DNA of 56,349 nt. Origin: a bacterium. Its GTDB lineage: Bacteria; Patescibacteriota; Minisyncoccia; CAIUEV01. The position numbers and the translations under genes were made by a program. Shown in pieces: positions 7,999 through 52,094 of the stretch (position 1 is its first letter; every line of letters starts with the position of its first letter). The notes below the pieces were generated by a model. That model saw nothing but the letters and a program-made list of their open reading frames with translations. It made no database searches and had not been told where the DNA came from. The DNA lies in NCBI GenBank assembly GCA_021779915.1, contig JAJXZR010000001.1, positions 1 through 56,349 on the forward strand. Reading direction: 5' to 3'.

Positions 7999-8005
7999 CA
8001 AAATA

Positions 8006-8119
8006 ATGTAAAATTAAAAGATCAAAATGCAAAATTGAGGAGTCGCCTTAGGCGACAATCAATTGAATGTTGCGATTAGCGACACCACAATTTTCCATTT
8101 TGATTTTTGCATTTTAAAT
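8006..8119. repeat. Family C: 7-mer (AAAATGY-type) inverted arrays enclosing two GTCGC-loop-GCGAC hairpins
   Basis: aaaatgcaaaattgaggagtcgccttaggcgac...gcgacaccacaattttccattttgatttttgcatttt; similar copies at 22983, 33006 and 50278. Confidence 0.85.
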
Positions 8120-8158
8120 TATGCGCTTGTACAAAAATAACCAAAACACGTCTGGTGT

Positions 8159-15940: not shown

Positions 15941-16414
15941 ATGAAGATCAAAGTTACTTGGGGAACCGGGACGGGAAACACTCTTTTGAGTTCTTTCGAC
16001 AGTGCTTTATTTGATGCGGGAATTGCTAATTATAATTTGATTCCCTTAAGTTCGGTCATTCCTCCCAAATCTAAAATCGAAGTGAAAAAAATAAATCTGC
16101 AAGAATCAAAAAAAGATTTTGGTAAAAGGCTTTATGTGGTTTTAAGTCGCAATTGTACCGCTAAAAAAGACGCCAGTATTTTTGCCGGAGTAGGCTGGGT
16201 CATGAATGAAAAAGAGCAAAAAGGCTTGTTTGTTGAACATCACGGGGAAAGTGAAAAAGAAGTTGAAACTTTGATAAAAAAATCCTTAACTGACATGACT
16301 GTTTACCGCAAGGATAGTTTTGGAGAAATCAATATGAAAATAACTGGCATAAAATGCACTGGAAAACCAGTTTCGGCACTAGTTTGTGCGGTTTATAAAG
16401 TCAGTAAATGGTAA
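15941..16414 (+). CDS. pdaD: Pyruvoyl-dependent arginine decarboxylase
   Basis: GTG...LSSFDSAL.DAGIANYNLIPLSSVIPP (Ser-Ser autocleavage site), G..LYVV, GLFVEH. Confidence 0.88.
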   Translation: MKIKVTWGTGTGNTLLSSFDSALFDAGIANYNLIPLSSVIPPKSKIEVKKINLQESKKDFGKRLYVVLSRNCTAKKDASIFAGVGWVMNEKEQKGLFVEHHGESEKEVETLIKKSLTDMTVYRKDSFGEINMKITGIKCTGKPVSALVCAVYKVSKW

Positions 16415-16421
16415 AAAAACA

Positions 16422-16642
16422 TGTCATCCCCGGCGTGTCGACCGGGGATCCAGGAGAATAGAAAATTGCACTAATTAGTCTAATTATACTAATTGACCTA
16501 AAAAAGCACCAAGCACTAAATAATAAAATAAAATCTTAGAAATTGGTTTTCGAGAGTTTGTTTAGAATAATTAAGTTAATTAGTACAATTAGAATAATTA
16601 GTGAGTTTAACTGGATCCCCGGTCGACACGCCGGGGATGACA
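16422..16642. mobile_element. Family B element, copy 2: perfect 32-bp terminal inverted repeats around a family F (CTAATTATA-type 9-mer) array
   Basis: 16422-16453 is the exact reverse complement of 16611-16642. Confidence 0.88.
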
Positions 16643-16661
16643 CATTTTTTAAACTAATTTA

Positions 16662-33005: not shown

Positions 33006-33119
33006 AAATGAAAAATGTAAAAATCAAAATACAAAATTATTGAGTCGCCTTGATCGACAATCAATCAATCGTCGCTGTAGGCGACACCATAATTTTACAT
33101 TTTGATTTTTACATTTTTA
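33006..33119. repeat. Family C element
   Basis: aaaaatgtaaaaatcaaaatacaaaattattgagtcgccttgatcgac...gtcgctgtaggcgacaccataattttacattttgatttttacatttt; lies between convergent ftsK and yraN. Confidence 0.83.
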
Positions 33120-35405: not shown

Positions 35406-36851
35406 TCAGATTCCAATATTTATATTTTGGTTTTCTATTTTGACCTTAAATTTCCATCCAGTTTTTTTGTCTTTTTCCGCTTTTACGTAGATTAAGTGTT
35501 TTAAGCCGGATATCTCTTCGTTGAAAGCAGTCCGAAGAGGAAAGGGGAGAACCCCCCAGCAAACTAAAAGTTTTCTGGAAAGAGGGCTATGGCTCCCCAT
35601 AAAACAATAAACAGGAGTGTTGGGACGAAGACTGGCTAGATGCTTAACAAAGAGAACGGGAGTTTCTTCCAGAACAATTCCATCGGGTTTTGACTCGAGT
35701 GCTAGGCGGAAAATTGCTTGAGCTGTCATTTGAAGGAGATTTTTTTGAGGCAGATTTCTTCTTGTTTCAAGCTCTTTAACTCGGTTTAGGTCGTCATAGG
35801 GTGATTTTTCCGTAACTTTAATTATTTTTTCCATCATCTGGACAGAAAGAATTGGATATTTACCGCTGGCTGACTCCCCCGAAAGCATAACCGCATCAGT
35901 TCTATCGATAACGGCATTGGCAACATCCGTTAGTTCTGCCCGAGTAGGCCTAGGAGAATCAACCATTGATTCAAGCATATTAGTTGCTACAATGGCCGGT
36001 ACTCCGCTTCGGAGACAGTGTCTTAGTAGTAATTTTTGATAAACAGGAACCTTTTCGGGAGGTGCCTCTACTCCTAAATCGCCCCTGGCTACCATAATCA
36101 CATCCACCACTTTAAGGATATCTTTTAGATTATGCAGTGCTTCCAAAGTTTCAATTTTAGCCACAATCCAAGGATGTCCAGTCGTTTTGCCTAAAATTTT
36201 AGTTATTCTTTTTTGGAGGGAAACAATGTCTTTTGCGTTTTTGACAAACGATAAGGCAATAAAATCAAGTCCCTTTTTTACTGCAAATTCAAGGTCTTTT
36301 TGATCCTTTTTTGTAAAAGAAGGAATAAATTTAGCTAGAGTAGGAAAGTTTATTCCCTTGCGTATTTTTATCAGTCCATTATTTTTTACCGACATTTCCC
36401 ATCTTTTCTCGCTAATTTTTTTAAGGCTTCTAAGCTCTACCATACCGTTGTCCAAAAACACCGAGTCACCATTTTTAAGGTGTTTTATGAGCATCACATC
36501 ACAATCTAAGCGGATTTGCTTCTTTAAATCGCCTTCTAAGCGTCCTTCAACTAAATAAACTTTTTCTCCTTTTTTAAATTCTAGCTCAGAAACTTTATTA
36601 TTCTTATCTTTTAATTCAGAAATTCTCACTCTTGGTCCCTGAAGATCAGCCATGATCCCAACACTTTTTCCAGTTCGGTAAGCGGCATGGCGCAGATTCA
36701 AGATAGCCTGTTCGTGCCAGTCATGTGAACCATGAGAAAAATTTAATCTAGCAATATCCATCCCCGATTCTATCATTGCTTCGAGAGTCTCAATATTTTC
36801 TGAAGCGGGGCCAATAGTCGCGACCACTTTGGTCAAGTTATCTTTTTTCAT
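35406..36851 (-). CDS. pyk: Pyruvate kinase
   Basis: TKVVATIGPAS, ARLNFSHG, DLQGP, AKIE, MVARGDLGVE, ATNMLESM, PTRAE, DAVMLSGES; C-terminal domain divergent. Confidence 0.96.
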   Translation of the reverse strand: MKKDNLTKVVATIGPASENIETLEAMIESGMDIARLNFSHGSHDWHEQAILNLRHAAYRTGKSVGIMADLQGPRVRISELKDKNNKVSELEFKKGEKVYLVEGRLEGDLKKQIRLDCDVMLIKHLKNGDSVFLDNGMVELRSLKKISEKRWEMSVKNNGLIKIRKGINFPTLAKFIPSFTKKDQKDLEFAVKKGLDFIALSFVKNAKDIVSLQKRITKILGKTTGHPWIVAKIETLEALHNLKDILKVVDVIMVARGDLGVEAPPEKVPVYQKLLLRHCLRSGVPAIVATNMLESMVDSPRPTRAELTDVANAVIDRTDAVMLSGESASGKYPILSVQMMEKIIKVTEKSPYDDLNRVKELETRRNLPQKNLLQMTAQAIFRLALESKPDGIVLEETPVLFVKHLASLRPNTPVYCFMGSHSPLSRKLLVCWGVLPFPLRTAFNEEISGLKHLIYVKAEKDKKTGWKFKVKIENQNINIGI

Positions 36852-38664: not shown

Positions 38665-38786
38665 AAATTTAAAAAATCTGTTTTTTAGTATTTTTTTATC
38701 AATTTCTTGTTGCGGAACTCGCTTCGCTCAGACAGTCCTCACAAGAAATTGATAAAAAAATACTAAAAAACAGATTTTTTAAATTT
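38665..38786. repeat. Family D long palindrome, copy 1: perfect 46-bp arms around a 30-nt conserved core
   Basis: 38665-38710 is the exact reverse complement of 38741-38786; core TGCGGAACTCGCTTCGCTCAGACAGTCCTC. Confidence 0.92.
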
Positions 38787-38860
38787 TTGGCTAGTTATCA
38801 ATTATTACTCAAAATCATAAATTTGTTTATTAATATAAGTATAAAAATTAACATTAGGTT

Positions 38861-39088
38861 ATGGTTCAAATTATAGCGATAGTCCAGGTTGTATCAGCCA
38901 TTCTTCTCACAATTGTAGTTCTTTTGCAAAACAGAGAGGGCGGTGCTTCCGGCGTTTTAGGTGGGGAAGGAGTAGGAGGTTCGTTTTACACGAAACGAGG
39001 TCTTGACAGAGGGCTTTTTTACGGAACCGTAGTTTTAGGGGTTATCTTTTTTATGAGTGCTATTGCCAGTTTTTTTGTGAGTAAATAA
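38861..39088 (+). CDS. secG: Preprotein translocase subunit SecG
   Basis: VLLQ...GG.SG..GG...FYTKRG.DR.L, two TMs, 75 aa. Confidence 0.92.
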   Translation: MVQIIAIVQVVSAILLTIVVLLQNREGGASGVLGGEGVGGSFYTKRGLDRGLFYGTVVLGVIFFMSAIASFFVSK

Positions 39089-39123
39089 ATTTGCAATTGT
39101 ATTCCAAAAAATAATATAAAAAA

Positions 39124-39846
39124 ATGACAAAAGATTCACAAAACAAAAGGATTATCAGGAGTCTTCTAGTCTTCTTAGCGGTTTTTGCAATTGCACTAAT
39201 TTTAATCGAAATTATGTCTTCAAATTCGACGGTTACAGATATAGAAGGACTAAAAAAAGCGACTAGCCTAGATGAATTCATTGTTTCAAATCCCAATGAT
39301 TTTATGAGCAATCAGGAAAAAAAGGCAATGGGATTGAGTGATACAGAAATACTTTCACCGGTTCCACTCAAAGTGGAGGGTGCAAAAATTATTATGGCAC
39401 CAAAACTTCTGGGAGGGGGAGACCTTGTTTATACGCCCGTTTTTGCCACTGGAAATTATTTTGCCATTATTACCGCTGAAAATCTAAGTAAGATTTTTTC
39501 TCCTCAATCCCCCGAACAAGCTATACAATATATTGATTTTCTTAGAACTAAGCTTGGAGCAACCAGTTATGATCGCTCCAGGATTACTGTTTGGCAAAAA
39601 AGCGATTATGATAATATACATTGTAAAGATGACAACGGTAATGATCTTGGGCTACCAAACGAACGGCCGGTTACGACAGCAACTTCCAAAGACAATGGTT
39701 GGGAAATAACTTGGATTTATCATTCCCAAACAGTTCCAGCCGGTTTTTTCAGAGAAGTTTTTGAGGTTGGTAAAGATGGGAGTGTCAACCTAAAAGAAAA
39801 AGAAGGGGAACCTTTCTGGTCTTGCGGAACAGGAATCTTGTTTTAG
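39124..39846 (+). CDS. Hypothetical membrane-anchored extracytoplasmic protein
   Basis: N-terminal TM, two Cys, 240-aa ORF downstream of secG. Confidence 0.75.
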   Translation: MTKDSQNKRIIRSLLVFLAVFAIALILIEIMSSNSTVTDIEGLKKATSLDEFIVSNPNDFMSNQEKKAMGLSDTEILSPVPLKVEGAKIIMAPKLLGGGDLVYTPVFATGNYFAIITAENLSKIFSPQSPEQAIQYIDFLRTKLGATSYDRSRITVWQKSDYDNIHCKDDNGNDLGLPNERPVTTATSKDNGWEITWIYHSQTVPAGFFREVFEVGKDGSVNLKEKEGEPFWSCGTGILF

Positions 39847-39865
39847 CTTTGGATGAATTTTTTTT

Positions 39866-40765
39866 CTAAACATTTAAAAGATAAGCTTCAAGAAGCAATT
39901 CCGGGTTTCCGCTAGGATTGCTCTTTTTGGCTTGACTGGTATAATCCAATGTTTTTTGAATTTTTTTAATTAGTTTTTTACATCCCTTCGTGTCTTCTTT
40001 TTCATAAGCTTCTTTGAGTTTCGAATAGTTTTCTAAAGTAAAAATTTCCAGCAAATCTATAACCTCATTTTGGCTGTTTTTTATCCAATCTTTCGCCCAA
40101 GATATTTTTTGAGTCGGGCTCAGAGAGCTTAGATTTTGGAAAAGATCAAAAATATTTTCATAATAAGTGAAATTATCAGCCATCTTACTGGCTAAATTAA
40201 TATTTCCTTGCGACCAAAAATATATTTTTACTATTTCTTCATTTTTAAGATGGGGGAAGTTATTCGTTAAATATTCTGTGATGAGCAGATTTTCTTTTCT
40301 AGTCAAATTAAACTGAATTGAACGGCTAATTAAAGTTGGGAGAATTTCTTCCCGTGAATTTCCAAAAAGGATTAGGTAACGATTTTTTCTCGGCTCTTCC
40401 ATAGTCTTAAGCAGAGCGTTTTGAGACTCAAGGTTTAGCGCTCTAACATTCGGAATAATCCCTATTTTAAAAGACCTAGAAGAACTCGAGAGACTGAGGT
40501 CTCGAATAAAACTTCTGGTTTCTTTAATACTGATACTATTTTTCCCAACGCTCCTAACAAGTAAAATTACTTCCGACTCCAAAGAATTTCGATCGGACAA
40601 GACTCCGTCTTCATGTCCCAACAAATAAGCAAATATTTCACTTTGGTTTTTTTTCCATTCTTCTTCCCCCAACGGAAAAATAAAAAGCGGAGGTTTCTCC
40701 CCCTCCTTACACCAATTCAGGAGAGTCGAACGTAAAAAAGGATAATGTTTTTTTAGAAACACCAA
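39866..40765 (-). CDS. holB: DNA polymerase III delta' subunit, divergent
   Basis: ISIKETR, KIGII...LN.ESQNALLKTMEEP, ILPTLISR, SQGN; P-loop and Zn module not recognisable. Confidence 0.85.
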   Translation of the reverse strand: MVFLKKHYPFLRSTLLNWCKEGEKPPLFIFPLGEEEWKKNQSEIFAYLLGHEDGVLSDRNSLESEVILLVRSVGKNSISIKETRSFIRDLSLSSSSRSFKIGIIPNVRALNLESQNALLKTMEEPRKNRYLILFGNSREEILPTLISRSIQFNLTRKENLLITEYLTNNFPHLKNEEIVKIYFWSQGNINLASKMADNFTYYENIFDLFQNLSSLSPTQKISWAKDWIKNSQNEVIDLLEIFTLENYSKLKEAYEKEDTKGCKKLIKKIQKTLDYTSQAKKSNPSGNPELLLEAYLLNV

Positions 40766-40766
40766 A

Positions 40767-40910
40767 TTAGTTTATCAAGTTAGAAAGTTTATCAAGTTCA
40801 TTAAATAAGAACTATAATGAATAGATAAGAAAACGCAATAAAACAAAAAACAAACCTATAGCAACAGAGATCATAATAAAAAAGTTTGCTTGATAAACCC
40901 AATGAACTAG
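40767..40910. repeat. Family A element with a long internal spacer
   Basis: ttagtttatcaagttagaaagtttatcaagttca ... cttgataaacccaatgaactag; the terminal CTA is the TAG stop of the upstream GT gene. Confidence 0.65.
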
Positions 40911-42709
40911 TTTTCCGGCACATGATAGACGAAAATTGAATATCCGATTTGAGCGACTGGTTTATAATAATCTGTCAGCCAATGGTAGCTTCCTTGAGAA
41001 GGAGGATTCAAACTGTTCCATTGAATGGCGCTGGCGGAAATAGCGAACCAACCACTCGTTGGCTTCTTGTCAAACCCCCAAACTTGGTACCTGCCGTTTA
41101 AGTAATAATCAAGGTTTCCCCCACCAAAATAATCAATCTTAACATAAGGAATATTATTGTCATCCATAAACTGGCGTAATCTGATCAAATCCTGTCCCCA
41201 ATCCAAATTGGAATCTACTAGATATTTATAACCCTCTTTCGGTCCTCCAATCGTTTCGTTAAAATAGGCAAGATAGCTTGGGAAAACTAATATGTTACTC
41301 CCAACAACCCAAATTAGAAGCAAAGAAAGTATTCCAATAGTGAAAAAGCGTGCCCAGACTTGTTTCTTTCCTTCAAAGTGCTCCCAAAAAATTGAAAGCA
41401 TATAGGCGGTAAAAAGATAAATGAAAGGAAAAACAGGCAAAATATAACGGATTCCCAACTGTAGCTTGTTAACCGAAGCCATAAAGAAAATCAGAAAAGC
41501 GAAAAAGAAATAACCTATAAGAACCGCATTTGTTTGAAGCCAATAAGCATTCAATAACTTGTGATTTTTCCCTTTAGACCAAGATTTCAACACCTTTACA
41601 AGAATCAAAGTAAATATTATTCCAGCAAAATAGAAAAGTATTTGCGATGCAATCGGTTCTTTTAATAAATAGGCGAAAACAAAGTAATCCGGCCAATTTT
41701 TCCCCACCTCCCCAAAGAAATAAGTGGTGTGGCCTCCAGTGGCATGAGCGGTAACCATTAAAAATCCTAAAAGATACTGGGCATAAGGCCTTGTAAGGGG
41801 AAAATCTGTCATTTTGTTCAAGTAGTAAGGAGCATTGATTTTCCCCAGATCATTGGGGGTTAAAGATTCATTGATTAGTTGATGTTGAACAGCTAATGGC
41901 ATATTCCACATAGTGAAAGTATACCAAACCCCCACTAAAACATATCCAATTGCCATTATTACAATAGCTTTGCCTATTTGGAGAAACATCTGGTGTAAAG
42001 CTATTTTGGATTTTCCTTTGCGGTACACCCCCAAACCATAAAGAGCCCCAATTACTAAAAAGGTGGGAATTAAGAGAAAAACAGAAAATTTGGCTAGTTG
42101 CGCTAAACCAAAAATTAAACCGGCAAACAGCATTCTTTTCCAGTTTGGTCTTTCTAAATAAAGATAATAGGAATAAAGAGCAAAAACAGTAAAGGCAGTA
42201 ATTCCCATATCGGTCGTAATAAACCTCCCGTGAGCCATCAAATTAGGCGAAAAAAGAAAAAGCAAAAGAGCAATTAAGGCAGTTTCTCTCCTTTTGGTAA
42301 TTTTTTCGGCAAACCGATAAAGTACCCAGCCTCCCAAAAGGAATATTAGAATCATAGGAATACGAGCCCAAAACAGCATTCTATCAGCATCATTTCCGTA
42401 TTTATATAAAAATTTGTCTCCCAGATCCCACTGGTCATTGACATGATCCTTCCAAGCAGGATCTTGTTCAGGGAAATAAACGCTTTGAAAAAGAAGTGGA
42501 ACGGCCGCCAACTCTTTAATAAGTGGCGGATGTTCAGGGTTGACACGATAGTCCTGTTTGGTTAGATAGGAATATCCGGAAACAATATGAGGCATTTCAT
42601 CCCTCACGGCTGAATCGTCCCAAATACTAAAAATCGCCAGCAAACCTGCCATTATCATAAGAACAGCAGCAATAAAATGCGTTTTAATAATGTGTTTCCA
42701 GAATTTCAT
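40907..42709 (-). CDS. GT-C (PMT/ArnT-like) membrane glycosyltransferase
   Basis: DEMPHI.SG, NPEHPPL.K, ARIP, SPN..AHG...TTD, AKFS, IRYILP, DSNLDWGQDL. Confidence 0.88.
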   Translation of the reverse strand: MKFWKHIIKTHFIAAVLMIMAGLLAIFSIWDDSAVRDEMPHIVSGYSYLTKQDYRVNPEHPPLIKELAAVPLLFQSVYFPEQDPAWKDHVNDQWDLGDKFLYKYGNDADRMLFWARIPMILIFLLGGWVLYRFAEKITKRRETALIALLLFLFSPNLMAHGRFITTDMGITAFTVFALYSYYLYLERPNWKRMLFAGLIFGLAQLAKFSVFLLIPTFLVIGALYGLGVYRKGKSKIALHQMFLQIGKAIVIMAIGYVLVGVWYTFTMWNMPLAVQHQLINESLTPNDLGKINAPYYLNKMTDFPLTRPYAQYLLGFLMVTAHATGGHTTYFFGEVGKNWPDYFVFAYLLKEPIASQILFYFAGIIFTLILVKVLKSWSKGKNHKLLNAYWLQTNAVLIGYFFFAFLIFFMASVNKLQLGIRYILPVFPFIYLFTAYMLSIFWEHFEGKKQVWARFFTIGILSLLLIWVVGSNILVFPSYLAYFNETIGGPKEGYKYLVDSNLDWGQDLIRLRQFMDDNNIPYVKIDYFGGGNLDYYLNGRYQVWGFDKKPTSGWFAISASAIQWNSLNPPSQGSYHWLTDYYKPVAQIGYSIFVYHVPEN

Positions 42710-42789
42710 TTTTTTTGTTTTTAGAAATTTTTTATAATTAACTTTCTTTCATTCTATTCTTAAAAATCTCATTTATCAAATATTAAGAA

Positions 42790-42907
42790 TATTCTAAAAT
42801 CTATTTTTTGAGTATTTTTTATTAGTTTCTTGTGAGGACTGTTCGAGCGAAGCGAGTTCCGCAACAAGAAACTAACAAAAAATACTCAAAAAATAGATTT
42901 TAGAATA
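42790..42907. repeat. Family D long palindrome, copy 2: 44-bp arms with one mismatch, core inverted relative to copy 1
   Basis: Arms 42790-42833 and 42864-42907; core GAGGACTGTTCGAGCGAAGCGAGTTCCGCA. Confidence 0.92.
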
Positions 42908-42914
42908 ATACATA

Positions 42915-43943
42915 TTATTTCAACAGCTCCTTAAATCTTTCTACCATCGCAACCGGCGTGGGATCGGTTTCATAGGCAATAGCCAGATAATACGAGGCGA
43001 AGCAACCGATTTGTAAAATGGAAAAAATACGAAAAATAATTTCTCCTTCGGGCATTTCAATTTTAGTCACCTTTGTTCCGTAATTAGCAAGCAAACTAGC
43101 CATTCTTTCAAAACGTTTTAGGTTTCTGGGATCGTCCTTATTATCTTCAAGGAAAATCAAGGAAAAATTAGCTTGGGGGTTAGTGAATCCAACCATTTCG
43201 TTGTGGTTTAGCTCCGGAAAATAGTTCCAAAAAGCAGGGGTTTTGGAATTTTCATTGAACATTATCTTCCAAATCATGGCAATTGATTTAAACTGCCAGG
43301 AAGAATAAACCACCGGCGTTTCCCCATGAACATTACCAGCGATTTTTTTTCCAATTTCTTTGTATTTCTCCATATTCATATATATTTCCAGTTTTGCTGA
43401 AGCCAGACTGTCGGCGACATTTTTAACTACACCTATATTTATTAAAACGCCCAGTAAAGCGGAGAAACTAGTTCCAATTCCCATTCTTGGTTGCATGCCT
43501 TGGGGAAGTTTAACAAGGGGAACATTACATTCTCGAGCAATCTCGGTCACTTTTCCCCCACTAGAAATGGCTATGCAAGCCAGTTTGTTTTCGTAAACTT
43601 CTTTAAAAGCAGAAAGAGTTTCTTCAGTATTGCCAGAATAGGAAGAAATGACATTCAAACATTTCGGATTAAACGCTTCCATGGGAAGGGCATAGGATCG
43701 ATTAATAATAATGCGAAAAGGATTTCCTCTTCTTTCTTTATTAACAGTTACATCTAAATAAATCTGCAACAAATCTCCCACCAGCGCCGACCCCCCCATT
43801 CCGTTTATAAGAAGAGTGTCGAATTCACCCTTTGGAGCTATTTCTTTGGAAAGCTCTAATCCCTCCATCAACTGATTGGGCATATTTTCAATCACCTGGA
43901 AAAGATTCTCTTTGTCTATGTCATTAGAATTTTCTTCATACAT
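42915..43943 (-). CDS. Bifunctional phosphoglucose/phosphomannose isomerase (SIS domain, archaeal-type)
   Basis: GMGGSA, SYSGNTEET, SSGG, QPR, WK..FNENSK, PELNHNE, DPTPV; ATG at 43943 preferred. Confidence 0.92.
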   Translation of the reverse strand: MYEENSNDIDKENLFQVIENMPNQLMEGLELSKEIAPKGEFDTLLINGMGGSALVGDLLQIYLDVTVNKERRGNPFRIIINRSYALPMEAFNPKCLNVISSYSGNTEETLSAFKEVYENKLACIAISSGGKVTEIARECNVPLVKLPQGMQPRMGIGTSFSALLGVLINIGVVKNVADSLASAKLEIYMNMEKYKEIGKKIAGNVHGETPVVYSSWQFKSIAMIWKIMFNENSKTPAFWNYFPELNHNEMVGFTNPQANFSLIFLEDNKDDPRNLKRFERMASLLANYGTKVTKIEMPEGEIIFRIFSILQIGCFASYYLAIAYETDPTPVAMVERFKELLK

Positions 43944-44002
43944 TTTTTTAATTTTAAAAAATGAATAAAATTTTAATTTTTTGTTTCTGACCAAATACCC
44001 AC

Positions 44003-44077
44003 TGGGGTGACTAGAGGGAGTTGAACCCTCGTGACCAGTTCCACAGACTGGCGTTCTACCGTTGAACTATAGTCACC
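44003..44077 (-). tRNA. tRNA-His (GTG)
   Basis: G-1 then GTGACTA/TAGTCAC acceptor stem with C73 and encoded CCA; D arm GTTC/GAAC; anticodon arm CCAGT-CT GTG GA-ACTGG; T arm GAGGG-TTCAACT-CCCTC. Confidence 0.95.
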
Positions 44078-44180
44078 CCGCTAGGTACTTAAACCATTAC
44101 AGCTCGACTTTATCAGATTTTATTTAATAAGACAAAAAATTTTCAAGAAGAATACGAAAAAAACAAAAAACTATTCTATC

Positions 44181-44216
44181 AAAAAACAAAGCCCGCAAAA
44201 TAATGAGGGCTTTGTT
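44181..44216 (-). terminator. Probable intrinsic terminator downstream of the DedA gene
   Basis: aacaaagccc...gggctttgtt 10-bp stem with a T-run on the minus strand. Confidence 0.6.
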
Positions 44217-44272
44217 AATAGTTAGCACGCCAAAAGACTTAAACGAAAACTGCAAAAAAGGCTCATCTTTTC

Positions 44273-44896
44273 TCACTCCTTTTCCATATTCTTCATAAAT
44301 CTAACTGCTAAATAATAAGAAACAATCAGCAAAATAGTTATTCCAACCGTTACTTCGGCTGTATAGCTAAGGTAATTGTTAATTTGTTTATAGGATTCCC
44401 CAAAATAATACCCAATAAGAACTAGAAGAAACGATTTTGGTAAAGTTCCTACAAGATTAAAAAAAACAAATTTGCCGATTGGAACTTTGGCTACCCCGGC
44501 CGCAAACAGAAATACTGATCCTATCCCTTGAGTAACTTTAGATATAAGCAACGTTTTACCAGCATGCTTTTTAAAATATTTTTCAAGCTTTAAAATTCTT
44601 GCATTGCTTGCTCCCGTAATTTTTCTCCATCCCAGAGCAATAGAAGTGTTTCTTCCCCAACGACCCAGAAAATAATACAAGAGATCGCCCACGACATCCC
44701 CCAAAACCAAGATAAAATAAGCTGTCACAAAATTAATTTTTCCATGGGCAGAAAGAAAACCGGAGAGAACAGCCACAATTGGACCTTCAAAAACGGATAT
44801 GGGAAATATTACCCAATATTTGTAGGTTGCTAGCCAGAGAAGAATGTTTTGAAGTGAAAAAAACATTTTAATGAAATCAAAAACCATAAAAATCAC
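44273..44896 (-). CDS. DedA family membrane protein
   Basis: EGP.V.V.SGFL, GD...Y.LGR, GK.LL.SK, AG..KV...KF...N, GY.FG; start uncertain (44896, 44887 or later). Confidence 0.9.
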   Translation of the reverse strand: MIFMVFDFIKMFFSLQNILLWLATYKYWVIFPISVFEGPIVAVLSGFLSAHGKINFVTAYFILVLGDVVGDLLYYFLGRWGRNTSIALGWRKITGASNARILKLEKYFKKHAGKTLLISKVTQGIGSVFLFAAGVAKVPIGKFVFFNLVGTLPKSFLLVLIGYYFGESYKQINNYLSYTAEVTVGITILLIVSYYLAVRFMKNMEKE

Positions 44897-44951
44897 TTTC
44901 TATGACATCAGATTAACAAGTTTTTATCTAATTTGGTAATATTTATTGGTT

Positions 44952-45076
44952 ATCGAATTTCAAAATAGTTTTTGAGGAATTTTTTCTTAATTTATTGTGA
45001 GGACTTGTGTGAGCGAAGCGAGTTCCGCAACAAGAAATTAAGAAAAAATTCCTTAAAAACTATTTTGAAATTCGAT
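44952..45076. repeat. Family D long palindrome, copy 3: 47-bp arms with two mismatches
   Basis: Arms 44952-44998 and 45030-45076; core GAGGACTTGTGTGAGCGAAGCGAGTTCCGCA. Confidence 0.92.
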
Positions 45077-50278: not shown

Positions 50279-50393
50279 TTAAAATTAAAAATGCAAAATT
50301 AAAAATTGTGGAGTGAGCTGTCGCTCACATTTTAATTAATTGTCACTTTTAGCGACACCGAAATTTTGCATTTTGCATTTTTAATTTTGAATT
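50278..50393. repeat. Family C element
   Basis: aaaatgcaaaattaaaaattgtggagtgagctgtcgctcac...gtcacttttagcgacaccgaaattttgcattttgcatttt. Confidence 0.83.
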
Positions 50394-50399
50394 AATATT

Positions 50400-51854
50400 T
50401 TGCTCGCCAAATCCTTCTTTTTTGTTCTAATTAGTGAAATTTTTTTCAATCTTTCTGGTTATATTGTCCACAGTGGGATGGGGCGGATTTTGGGACCGGC
50501 GGGGTATGGTCGTTATGGAGTGGTGATCACGCTTTCTACTATGATTATAATTCTCATCGGAAATGGTATTCCGACGGCGATGGCAAAGTATTTAAGCGAG
50601 ATTTTTGAAAAGAAACCGGGACTAGTGCCAATTATTAAAAGACAAGCGGCGATACTACAAACATTGTTGATTGGCTCAGTTACGGTTTTATTCTATTTTT
50701 TTTCCCCTCTTATTTCTGACGTCCTAGGTGACAGTAGCTTAACGCCCTTATTTCAGATTTCCGCTTTTATTATCCCTTCTTTTGCTCTAGCGTCTTTTTA
50801 TTTTTCCTATTACACGGGAGTCCACAAATTCAAAGTTCAGGCAATCCTCAAAACCAGTCGTTCCATTTTTCGAGTAGTTTTTATTTTAGGGTTAGCCCTG
50901 CTCCTCAAAAGCCGTGGAATGGCTCTCCAAGGCGCTATTCTTGGCTATATTCTTGTTCCTCTTACAATTTTTTTTGAAGCCAGTCATTATAACTCTTACA
51001 AAAAACAAAAACCGGAAGGAAGTTTTAAATGGCAAAAATTATTGAAATACGCTTGGCCGGTCACACTTTTTATGATCGCTTACGAGTTTCTGATTACTAT
51101 TGACCTTTATATGGTAAAAGGTCTTTTGCGCGATGACTATTTAACTGGGATTTACAATGCGACTATTACAGTGGGTCGCATTCCTTATTATCTTTTTTAT
51201 GCTCTTACTATTATTTTGCTCCCCACCGTTTCCAGGTCTACCTCTAACAACAATCACGATGAAACAAAAAAACTGGTCAGCCAGTCACTTAGGTTAATGA
51301 CCATGTTTCTGGTACCTATCTGCATTTTAATGTCAGCATATTCGGCTCCAATCCTACAAATTTTTTATTCTAAGAGATTTCTAGCAGCCACAGAACCAAT
51401 GTCAATTTTTGTTTTTGGAGTAGGATTCTTGACCATTTTTTATGTTCTTACTTTTGTCATAAACGGAGCCGGAAAAGTGAAAGTACCAATGTACATCTCG
51501 TTTTTTGGACTCATCCTCAATATTATCCTCACCTATTTTCTTATCAAAAAATATGCTCTTCTTGGAGCTGTGTGGGGAACTTCTACGACATCTTTGATTG
51601 TCACACTGATTATGCTAGTCTACACTTATAAATTCTTCGGTTATTTATTTGAATTAAAAAGTTTTCTTAAAATTGTATTGGCTGGCTTATTACTTTCCAT
51701 TCCCGCTTTTCTTTTACCAAGGGAATCAATCTTTACGCTACCCATCGGCGCCTTAGAATTTGGATTTTATATTTTGCTCCTTTATTTATTCAAAGAATTT
51801 GGCAGTTTTGAGATTGATTTTTTTATGCGAATGGTTAGGAGGAAGAAGAAGTAA
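50400..51854 (+). CDS. Wzx-like oligosaccharide flippase (MOP superfamily)
   Basis: R.LGPAGYG.Y, GIP.A..KY, ID..MV, G.YNA, LPTVS, GA; many TMs; next to a glycosyltransferase. Confidence 0.88.
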   Translation: MLAKSFFFVLISEIFFNLSGYIVHSGMGRILGPAGYGRYGVVITLSTMIIILIGNGIPTAMAKYLSEIFEKKPGLVPIIKRQAAILQTLLIGSVTVLFYFFSPLISDVLGDSSLTPLFQISAFIIPSFALASFYFSYYTGVHKFKVQAILKTSRSIFRVVFILGLALLLKSRGMALQGAILGYILVPLTIFFEASHYNSYKKQKPEGSFKWQKLLKYAWPVTLFMIAYEFLITIDLYMVKGLLRDDYLTGIYNATITVGRIPYYLFYALTIILLPTVSRSTSNNNHDETKKLVSQSLRLMTMFLVPICILMSAYSAPILQIFYSKRFLAATEPMSIFVFGVGFLTIFYVLTFVINGAGKVKVPMYISFFGLILNIILTYFLIKKYALLGAVWGTSTTSLIVTLIMLVYTYKFFGYLFELKSFLKIVLAGLLLSIPAFLLPRESIFTLPIGALEFGFYILLLYLFKEFGSFEIDFFMRMVRRKKK

Positions 51855-51871: not shown

Positions 51872-52094
51872 TGTCATCCCGGACTTCTTGCCTAACGGTA
51901 GCAAAGAAGCGGGGTCTAGGTTAGTTTCACTAATTATTCTAATTGTTCTAATTATACTAATTGATCTAAAAAACACCAAAAACCAATAAATAAAATTTTT
52001 AAAAAATGGTTCTTGTGAATTTGTTTAGAATAATTAGATTAATTAGAATAATTTAAAAAGTTACTGGATCCCAGCTCGGAGGACGGGATGACAC
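51872..52094. mobile_element. Family B element, copy 5 (degenerate), with a family E insertion and family F cargo
   Basis: tgtcatcccggactt[cttgcctaacggtagcaaag]aagcggggtctag ... ctggatcccagctcggaggacgggatgacac; interior aligns with that of copy 2. Confidence 0.75.

Follow-up and report, generated by a model that had tools for sequence, protein, structure and literature searches.

A nearly invariant tip on divergent but self-complementary palindromes: an AT-rich hairpin repeat of a Patescibacteria genome with relatives in many bacterial phyla

How can the two arms of a palindrome differ from copy to copy and still remain complementary to each other, around a center that hardly changes? This question is raised by three elements of about 120 bp, here called family D, in a 56,349-nt stretch of DNA (the window) from a member of the Patescibacteriota (contig JAJXZR010000001.1 of assembly GCA_021779915.1). 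The window is contig 39 of a host genome that comprises 1.12 Mb in 48 contigs, with a G+C content of 37% and a completeness of 95.9%; the genomes of its relatives measure 0.5-1.2 Mb. The computational analysis described below leads us to favor, tentatively, the view that family D is one branch, rich in A+T and locally expanded, of a family of non-coding fold-back repeats found across bacteria, i.e., selfish repeats that form hairpins and spread at the level of DNA.

In each element a core of the form TGCGGAACTCGCTTCGCTC..TCCTC separates the two arms. Copy 1 carries it on the + strand, copies 2 and 3 on the - strand, and the strand that it is read on is termed forward. The parts of the three elements (window coordinates) are as follows.

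38665-38710, + strand: copy 1, 5' arm; T-rich, 46 nt, 100% complementary by inverted-repeat search
38711-38740, + strand: copy 1, tip of 30 nt, TGCGGAACTCGCTTCGCTCAGACAGTCCTC; the - strand reads GCGAAGC at 38721-38727
38741-38786, + strand: copy 1, 3' arm; A-rich, 46 nt
42790-42833, - strand: copy 2, 3' arm in the element's own orientation; 43/44 complementary
42834-42863, - strand: copy 2, tip of 30 nt; its complement is on the + strand, with GCGAAGC at 42847-42853
42864-42907, - strand: copy 2, 5' arm in the element's own orientation
44952-44998, - strand: copy 3, 3' arm in the element's own orientation; 45/47 complementary
44999-45029, - strand: copy 3, tip of 31 nt, variant ..CTCACACAAGTCCTC; GCGAAGC on the + strand at 45013-45019
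45030-45076, - strand: copy 3, 5' arm in the element's own orientation

The three palindromes, first described in a sequence-only reading of the window, were all present in the sequence at these coordinates, and they rank among the strongest inverted repeats of the window. The search returned arms of 46 nt (100%), 44 nt (98%) and 47 nt (96%) with spacers of 30, 30 and 31 nt, in agreement with the 46/46, 43/44 and 45/47 pairs that had been claimed. Every one of the copies folds far better than its shuffled counterparts; for copy 1, the z-scores were -16.5 and -14.2 on the two strands, and none of 200 shuffles equaled it. The positions of open reading frames (ORFs), defined by a simple longest-ORF rule, also agreed with the placement of copies 1 and 3 between divergent genes. 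A scan for intrinsic terminators called none at the three elements.

Throughout the host genome the core was found 15 times, with no occurrence of a reversed-pattern control; the stretch of 30-31 nt that makes up the tip is nearly invariant. All 15 occurrences are intergenic and all lie in long palindromes, one of which is cut by a contig start. In the 14 whole copies, identity between an arm and its own partner averaged 97.8%, with a minimum of 95.5%, whereas the same arm compared between copies was only 68.4% identical (range 55-89%) and the arm of one copy compared with the partner arm of another 68.2% identical. The arms thus do diverge between copies while remaining self-complementary, as had been proposed from the window. 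Mismatches affected 10 of 625 aligned pairs, three of the 10 being of the G-T type on either strand. Comparison of the seven disjoint pairs of closest copies gave 226 identical pair positions, 41 at which both arms had changed but still paired, and 8 at which a change had left the bases unpaired. In base composition the arms are biased, the 5' arm being 56% T and the 3' arm 56% A. The T-tracts of the arms had been described as lying at roughly helical spacing. A run of six to seven T residues is indeed found 11-14 nt from the tip in 14 of 14 copies; because the spacing of runs of at least four T ranges from 7 to 24 nt around a median of 10.75 nt (n = 22), the description is fair but loose.

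The proposal that one arm is re-copied from the other gained partial support, since concerted change of the arms (41 compensated positions versus 8 that were not) fits re-copying or homogenization of a DNA type better than slow compensation of an RNA type; a start of such copying at the core would be conjecture. On population-genetic reasoning, independent double mutations could not plausibly match the share of compensated changes at this divergence, and a coupled event would therefore be needed to keep the arms paired. Quasipalindrome template switching in imperfect inverted repeats is described in two reports as an established source of mutation that homogenizes arms and can invert spacers (PMC7202029, PMC8604942), and the same compensatory pattern is shown by REPINs (PMC3116915). 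As for the cruciform extrusion that had also been considered, the 30-nt spacer argues instead for folding in single-stranded DNA (ssDNA). Two near-identical copies in the host genome (contig C14, 195-312, and contig C21, 1-74) have eight extra bases, TTTTGTCG, in common on one side only, and their tips point opposite ways relative to this shared tail; a one-sided tail on the copied unit plus inversion of the tip could produce such a pattern.

What exactly is conserved at the tip? The invariant part consists of a loop of about 20 nt, AACTCGCTTCGCTCRRACA, closed by a short covarying helix of 3-4 bp that occurs in the versions GGA/TCC, GGC/GCC, GCCG/CGGC and GCG/CGC. The Ralstonia tip reads GGC-AAACTCGCTTCGCTCAGACA-GCC, one Patescibacterium has a closing helix GCCG...CGGC, and a relative of the host from the same class carries GCG-AACTCGCTTCGCTCAAACA-ACGC. 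Because these variants differ in the closing helix, which covaries, the invariant piece is the loop only. Two adjacent loop positions vary from purine to purine only. Among one-mismatch variants of the tip, 17 of 27 (10 genomes; hand count) affected a single base, i.e., the N of GCGNAGC on the complementary strand, and this position of the mini-hairpin is the sole one at which the tip tolerates change. All four N of GCGNAGC give stable DNA mini-hairpins that melt at 70-76 °C (PMC13037366), and the GA/GA flanks on the same strand could form tandem sheared pairs around the mini-hairpin. In RNA folding of 112 loci, the GCGAAGC strand was the favored one in 87 and its complement in 25. Covariation extends to the stem adjoining the tip: in an alignment of 40 hand-picked sequences (37 of the 120 loci described below plus three host-genome copies), 10 of 10 pairs changed on both sides across phyla, and the observed score was reached by none of 500 shuffles. 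In Proteobacteria, Nitrospirota, Bacteroidota and one Saccharibacterium, an additional small hairpin precedes the big one on its 5' side on the forward strand, with its purine-rich 3' arm repeated once; the form found in the host genome is without this module.

The loci just mentioned come from a scan for exact matches to GGAACTCGCTTCGCTC-N6-8-TCCTC in one genome per species, which recovered an identical tip at 120 or more loci, where it caps long hairpins that are lineage-specific. By hand tally, the 80 listed matches with titles comprised 30 from Nitrospirota, 22 from Pseudomonadota, 13 from Lachnospiraceae, six from Bacteroidota, five from Patescibacteria/Saccharibacteria, one each from Bdellovibrionales and Spirochaetota, and two that were unclassified. 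For the 115 listed loci with 70-nt flanks, at least three of the first four flanking positions were Watson-Crick in 98, and at least 20 pairs between the flanks were formed in 106 (median 40); shuffling of the right flank lowered the median to 16 and left 38 loci that reached 20. The stems follow the base composition of their hosts. The same tip therefore caps long hairpins of host-like composition. Copy numbers per genome range from 1 to 30, and since some of the genomes are kin their counts are not independent.

Six Nitrospirales chromosomes: 10-30 copies each, partly in islands with a spacing of 1-3 kb
A Barnesiella: 23 copies
Two Lachnospiraceae: 13 and 11 copies
A Methylotenera: 3 copies
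A third Lachnospiraceae, Thauera, Maricurvus and a Saccharibacterium: 1 copy each

Might such palindromes nevertheless be mirror artefacts of assembly? Logan unitigs do end within copies 1 and 2 of the window, and the host copy cut by a contig start would also fit this explanation. We compared Logan DNA contigs from four runs of one study, disregarding as unreliable the two joints of run X4 with sides of 20-21 nt. A 5657-nt contig made by this second assembler spanned the whole of copy 3, without differences, in each of two runs, which may be the source samples. Moreover, the palindrome-plus-tip architecture is present in complete chromosomes and finished Ralstonia megaplasmids of other phyla, and the 106 loci with at least 20 flank pairs come from other genomes. 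Because copy 3 is crossed by a second assembler and the architecture recurs in finished genomes of other phyla, we regard an artefact as very unlikely, to the point of being negligible.

The distribution is patchy close to the host as well as far from it. With a 14-nt inner core, the tip was found in none of 13 genomes of the host's family or order, and a single variant copy was detected among 27 genomes of the same class. Only two of 400 other sampled genomes of the phylum contained true members, three more one-mismatch matches being chance matches in coding sequence. A scan of 5,426 E. coli genomes did not detect the tip; 72,556 plasmid records held no full-length match, only the variant core in Ralstonia megaplasmids, and 50,697 phage records held only partial matches (18-21 of the 30 bases). 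Viral contigs yielded one match in 2.9 million, and a metagenome scan for empty-site relatives returned three loci, all distant.

Family D had been called an uncharacterised element, and this stands insofar as neither an Rfam 15 family nor a matching paper was found; what had been missed is that it represents one branch of a multi-phylum family. At the gathering threshold, a tRNA was the only match of the window in Rfam 15, and 13 loci from eight lineages gave only sub-threshold matches to microRNA hairpins at E<=1. Neither the motif nor the concept was found in the literature searched, with the limit that subscription journals and unopened supplements may hold a description. The PBC-28-3 motif (PMC8632094) was considered and is a different, ahpC-specific element. 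Given the spread over many phyla, the invariance of the tip, and not only the pairing of the arms, has to be explained.

Copies within protein genes show what is inserted. In a patescibacterial gene for serine hydroxymethyltransferase (SHMT), palindrome plus tip form an in-frame insert of 32 residues that splits the Pfam match and is absent from another SHMT of the phylum used for comparison. One copy lies in frame in a topoisomerase I gene of the Saccharibacteria type, and open frames run through copies at two further loci. In all four of these in-gene copies the sense strand of the gene is the GCGAAGC strand, with two different reading frames in use. A conserved peptide as the object of selection was rejected, given that most copies are intergenic, that there is no synonymous variation and that a second reading frame is used (locus L079). 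In Nitrospirales and Barnesiella, units about 90% alike were found in unrelated flanks.

The Ralstonia solanacearum complex provides a series of alleles. A double unit of about 520 bp, made of two inverted units, lies between glgB and glgX; its full form is present in four strains (GMI1000, CFBP2957, MolK2 and RS488), the flanks of which differ by about 11%, and palindromic alleles of about 520, 105 and 55 nt occupy this same intergenic site (L159, the GMI1000 megaplasmid, and L168-L170). The inner part of the double unit is inverted in one other strain. Between strains, the arms of the big hairpin differ by fully compensated changes, including a swap of C-G to G-C, and the remaining unit is nearly identical.

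These alleles bear on the idea that only the tip of about 30 nt is mobile and inserts into the loops of pre-existing host hairpins. Host-specific arms would thereby be explained, as they match host base composition and differ between lineages, and the nested palindromes of 55, 105 and about 520 nt would also be in keeping with it. However, deletions between the small palindromes of the two halves explain the 105- and 55-nt remnants more simply, the full form being present in four strains, and the SHMT insert consists of the whole palindrome. In addition, a search of the host genome for "empty" hairpins with family-D-like arms gave only short A/T-run matches; no tip-less hairpin of this kind was found, and the arms therefore travel with the tip. 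We judge mobility of the tip by itself to be highly improbable.

The explanation that we tentatively prefer is a selfish repeat of the same kind as REPINs and the Rickettsia palindromic elements (RPEs). The element would fold when its DNA becomes single-stranded, and the whole hairpin, arms and tip together, would be copied to new sites, presumably with the aid of a trans-acting factor. The tip would be either the recognised part or the nucleus of folding, and the arms would need only to pair. A mutation in one arm would make a quasipalindrome, and intramolecular template switching during replication would then remove the change or copy it to the other arm; copies that no longer fold would not be propagated, so that selection would add to arm pairing. 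In favor of a selfish repeat are the insertion of whole units in the SHMT and topoisomerase I genes and a distribution that is patchy and expanding. That it acts as DNA rather than RNA is favored by the Watson-Crick arms, by variation that follows the GNA rule and by the read-through of in-gene copies. Orientation relative to genes also speaks for DNA, being random both in Barnesiella (upstream gene on the same strand 11, opposite 9; downstream 8 and 11) and in two Lachnospiraceae (10 and 11; 9 and 13).

Several observations weigh against this reading, most of them concerning the means of movement. No target-site duplication or terminal inverted repeats were seen, and no excision or empty-site junction was seen for the window copies. 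The associated HUH/Rep gene that the sequence-only reading had suggested did not materialize: a PF01797 search that gave matches in control genomes returned none in the host genome (G000) or in G043, G048 and G049, and one in G042. Reverse transcriptase is present in the host genome and a Saccharibacterium and absent from three Nitrospirales tested. No gene recurred beside or between copies in Pfam/NCBIfam scans of neighbors from the host genome, Maricurvus, Thauera, a Saccharibacterium, three Nitrospirales, Barnesiella, two Lachnospiraceae, two other Patescibacteria and three metagenome contigs; the neighbors found were unrelated housekeeping, transport, toxin-antitoxin and regulator genes, and the Lachnospiraceae copies examined lie among ordinary genes, so that a role as single-strand promoters near a transfer origin was rejected. 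No recurring small nuclease was seen among 29 host neighbor proteins or those of six other genomes, the ssnA family itself not having been searched. Two ORFs of 71 aa downstream of copies are mutually unrelated, and no parent element with a gene between two inverted units was found. Near-total invariance of about 20 nt across phyla also exceeds what is usual for the ends of selfish elements. A guide RNA of TnpB/IscB was considered too and rejected, as the ORFs of about 400 aa that adjoin single copies encode an AMP-binding enzyme, DctP and SHMT.

The remaining points against a DNA-level repeat hint at a gene-related role, possibly at the level of RNA. Twelve of 14 assessable host copies are co-directional with the downstream ORF and lie 32-208 nt before it. 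The small hairpins of Proteobacteria, Nitrospirota, Bacteroidota and Saccharibacteria have UUCG-type loops, some of them cUUCGg, on the strand opposite GCGAAGC, and U-rich tracts follow the big hairpin; these features are RNA-like, and either strand may be the functional one. Some copies occupy classical positions of mRNA stabilizers, i.e., after dctP (dctP-dctQ) and between glgB and glgX, recalling those of the REP type. The elements might accordingly be structured RNAs, long hairpins with a protein-binding apical loop that act in neighboring mRNAs or as small RNAs, for example as 3'-end protectors or terminators, RNase III-type processing sites or 5'-leader regulators, with spread being secondary. 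Nevertheless, the random orientation in three genomes of two other phyla and the absence of a match to any Rfam family argue against this, G-U pairs are not enriched in the host arms and elsewhere are about equal on the two strands (286 versus 359), and in-frame copies within essential genes are read through and not used as signals. In addition, a promoter-like site, which is a consensus match only, lies between copy 2 and its downstream gene; the sigma-70 scan of the window gave 27 sites versus 21.2 +/- 5.4 in shuffles, i.e., no excess. As for terminators, the upstream ORF of host copies is on the same strand in six cases and on the opposite strand in seven, so that seven of 13 copies with an upstream ORF face a divergent one, unlike the pattern of intrinsic termination. 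A structured RNA is, on this evidence, somewhat unlikely, and the DNA-level selfish repeat remains the reading that we favor.

Several known systems can be set beside family D. It works like a REPIN or an RPE and does not have the defining features of REPIN/RAYT pairs, DDE-type MITEs, IS200-type PATEs, attC sites, sso/ssi sites or Ssn motifs. Like REPINs, it consists of non-coding, dispersed hairpins of about 100 nt that are multi-copy and intergenic, with an ssDNA hairpin as the presumed active form and with compensatory changes (41 versus 8). REPINs, however, conserve their two ends and vary in the middle, whereas family D has an invariant tip and arms that are 68% alike; REPIN sequences are lineage-specific, whereas the family D tip is identical across phyla; and the Y1 HUH gene of the RAYT type (PF01797) was without a match in the host and in three of four other carriers. 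RPEs, reportedly introduced by Ogata and colleagues in 2000, are said to measure about 100-150 bp and to occur both between genes and in frame inside translated protein genes, the mechanism that mobilizes them being unknown. To our knowledge, they have been described from Rickettsia only. Palindromes between genes and in frame within them are likewise seen here, the latter in the SHMT and topoisomerase I genes, with all 15 host copies being intergenic. By description, the present family differs in spanning at least seven phylum-level groups and in being defined by an invariant apical loop.

Other candidates resemble family D less closely. For DDE-type MITEs, matching ends and a duplicated flank would be expected; in the host the outer ends differ and no flank is duplicated, and Barnesiella and Nitrospirales units likewise have unlike ends and no duplication. 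Instead of the subterminal hairpins at both ends of an IS200/IS605-derived PATE, the host form is a single hairpin, and there is no Y1 gene. The attC sites also act as folded single-strand hairpins in which structure is kept over stem sequence, and they can cluster between genes, as do the units of the Nitrospirales islands with their spacing of 1-3 kb. What they conserve, however, is the base of the hairpin with its R''/R' and L''/L' boxes, together with extrahelical bases, and they form co-oriented arrays next to intI; family D has variable stem bases, a conserved tip, mixed orientations and intervening genes that are ordinary and large (intI itself was not searched). The ssoA/ssoU sites of rolling-circle plasmids and the G4-type and ssiA sites are long, imperfectly paired hairpins, active only as ssDNA, whose apical loop is conserved and whose stems vary, and GNA mini-hairpins occur in G4, ssiA and N4 sites (PMC13037366). 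They reside on plasmids or ssDNA phages at one or few per replicon, whereas family D is chromosomal and multi-copy and all but absent from the plasmid and phage records. Finally, the NTS or Ssn-related motif (SRM) is a CGTC-tagged short hairpin repeat that is found across distant bacteria in up to hundreds of copies and acts as ssDNA, and genes for Ssn, a GIY-YIG ssDNA nuclease, are typically flanked by their own repeats, 71% having one nearby (PMC11893778). The motif of family D differs from this CGTC-tagged hairpin, and no neighbor gene recurs as ssnA (GIY-YIG, cd10448) would.

The two last systems raise the question of whether the hosts themselves use the repeat as an ssDNA signal, with the tip as folding nucleus and as the site that a conserved protein of replication, repair or transformation recognises. 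It might serve, for example, as a single-strand initiation site of the primase type, or be what a site-specific ssDNA nuclease targets; its usefulness would maintain it and recombination would spread it. Mini-hairpins of the GNA type mark single-strand initiation sites that depend on primase or RepB', as well as the hairpin promoters of phage N4 (PMC13037366), NTS/SRM with Ssn offers a precedent for a pan-bacterial hairpin repeat with a dedicated small nuclease (PMC11893778), and a universal partner would account for the identity of the tip across phyla. Against these stand its rarity and patchiness, i.e., two of 400 phylum genomes and none of 5,426 E. coli genomes, which are not what would be expected of a signal for a universal machine. 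It is also nearly missing from plasmids, phages and viral contigs, the replicons that need such signals, and the copies have no partner gene next to them. Of the Nitrospirales chromosomes, one looked biased between replichores, but five further ones were without clean bias, their origins not having been located. A host-used signal is accordingly unlikely.

We consider it possible, though doubtful, that the loop of about 20 nt with its GNA mini-hairpin acts as a universal "address label" that one conserved protein or host machine reads in single-stranded nucleic acid, the stems only presenting the label. Candidate readers would be a new site-specific ssDNA nuclease or transposase, i.e., a second Ssn-like case, or the replication priming apparatus. 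Should this hold, the family would represent a new class of mobile signal, pan-bacterial and borne on hairpins, and would bring with it an enzyme specificity that is likewise new; a dedicated enzyme, if one exists, would provide a new tool for single-stranded nucleic acids, specific for both sequence and structure. Bacterial genomes are shaped by dispersed hairpin repeats (REP, REPIN, RPE and NTS), and most of the factors that mobilize or read them were found decades later or are still unknown. Its recognisable part, a fixed string of about 20 bases common to distant phyla that include culturable species, makes this family unusually tractable in this respect. Its copies also constitute a natural series for how long palindromes stay perfect while diverging, and those in the SHMT and topoisomerase I genes extend selfish DNA within protein genes beyond Rickettsia to the ultra-small genomes of Patescibacteria.

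Some further observations were made along the way. In the Nitrospirales islands (L153, L154 and L171-L176), units stand on both sides of individual genes or small operons, the enclosed genes including those for a TonB receptor, a carotenoid-synthesis protein, HicAB, an HTH antitoxin and a histidine kinase, and the units are mixed with other REP-like hairpins such as GGCGCCATGGGATGGCGCC. The host genome has two reverse-transcriptase genes (contig C10, 7767-8486, and contig C28, 29559-30239). Its contig C42 contains, at about 35773-35957 and beside 23S-rRNA-like sequence, an inverted pair of ..GACGAAGTCGCTTCGCTCAC.. about 150 nt apart that includes GCGAAGC; this may be an rRNA insertion. Within the window, a tRNA gene (44006-44076, - strand) lies between phosphoglucose isomerase and DedA-like genes. 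A short repeat at about 40764-40800, between a holB-like gene and a gene for a membrane glycosyltransferase-like protein of 600 aa, had a Logan contig depth about fourfold that of its surroundings and many loose ends in all four runs. Other long AT-rich palindromes, at 8003-8122, 33011-33118 and 50281-50401, have a GC-rich center on GAGTCGCC / GGCGAC and arms of AAAATGCAAAATT-type repeats. A nested palindrome at 16414-16650 has GC-rich outer arms (..CATCCCCGGCGTGTCGACCGGGGATC..) around an inner inverted repeat of CACTAATTAGTCTAATT-type units, and this family of units appears again at 51928-52066.

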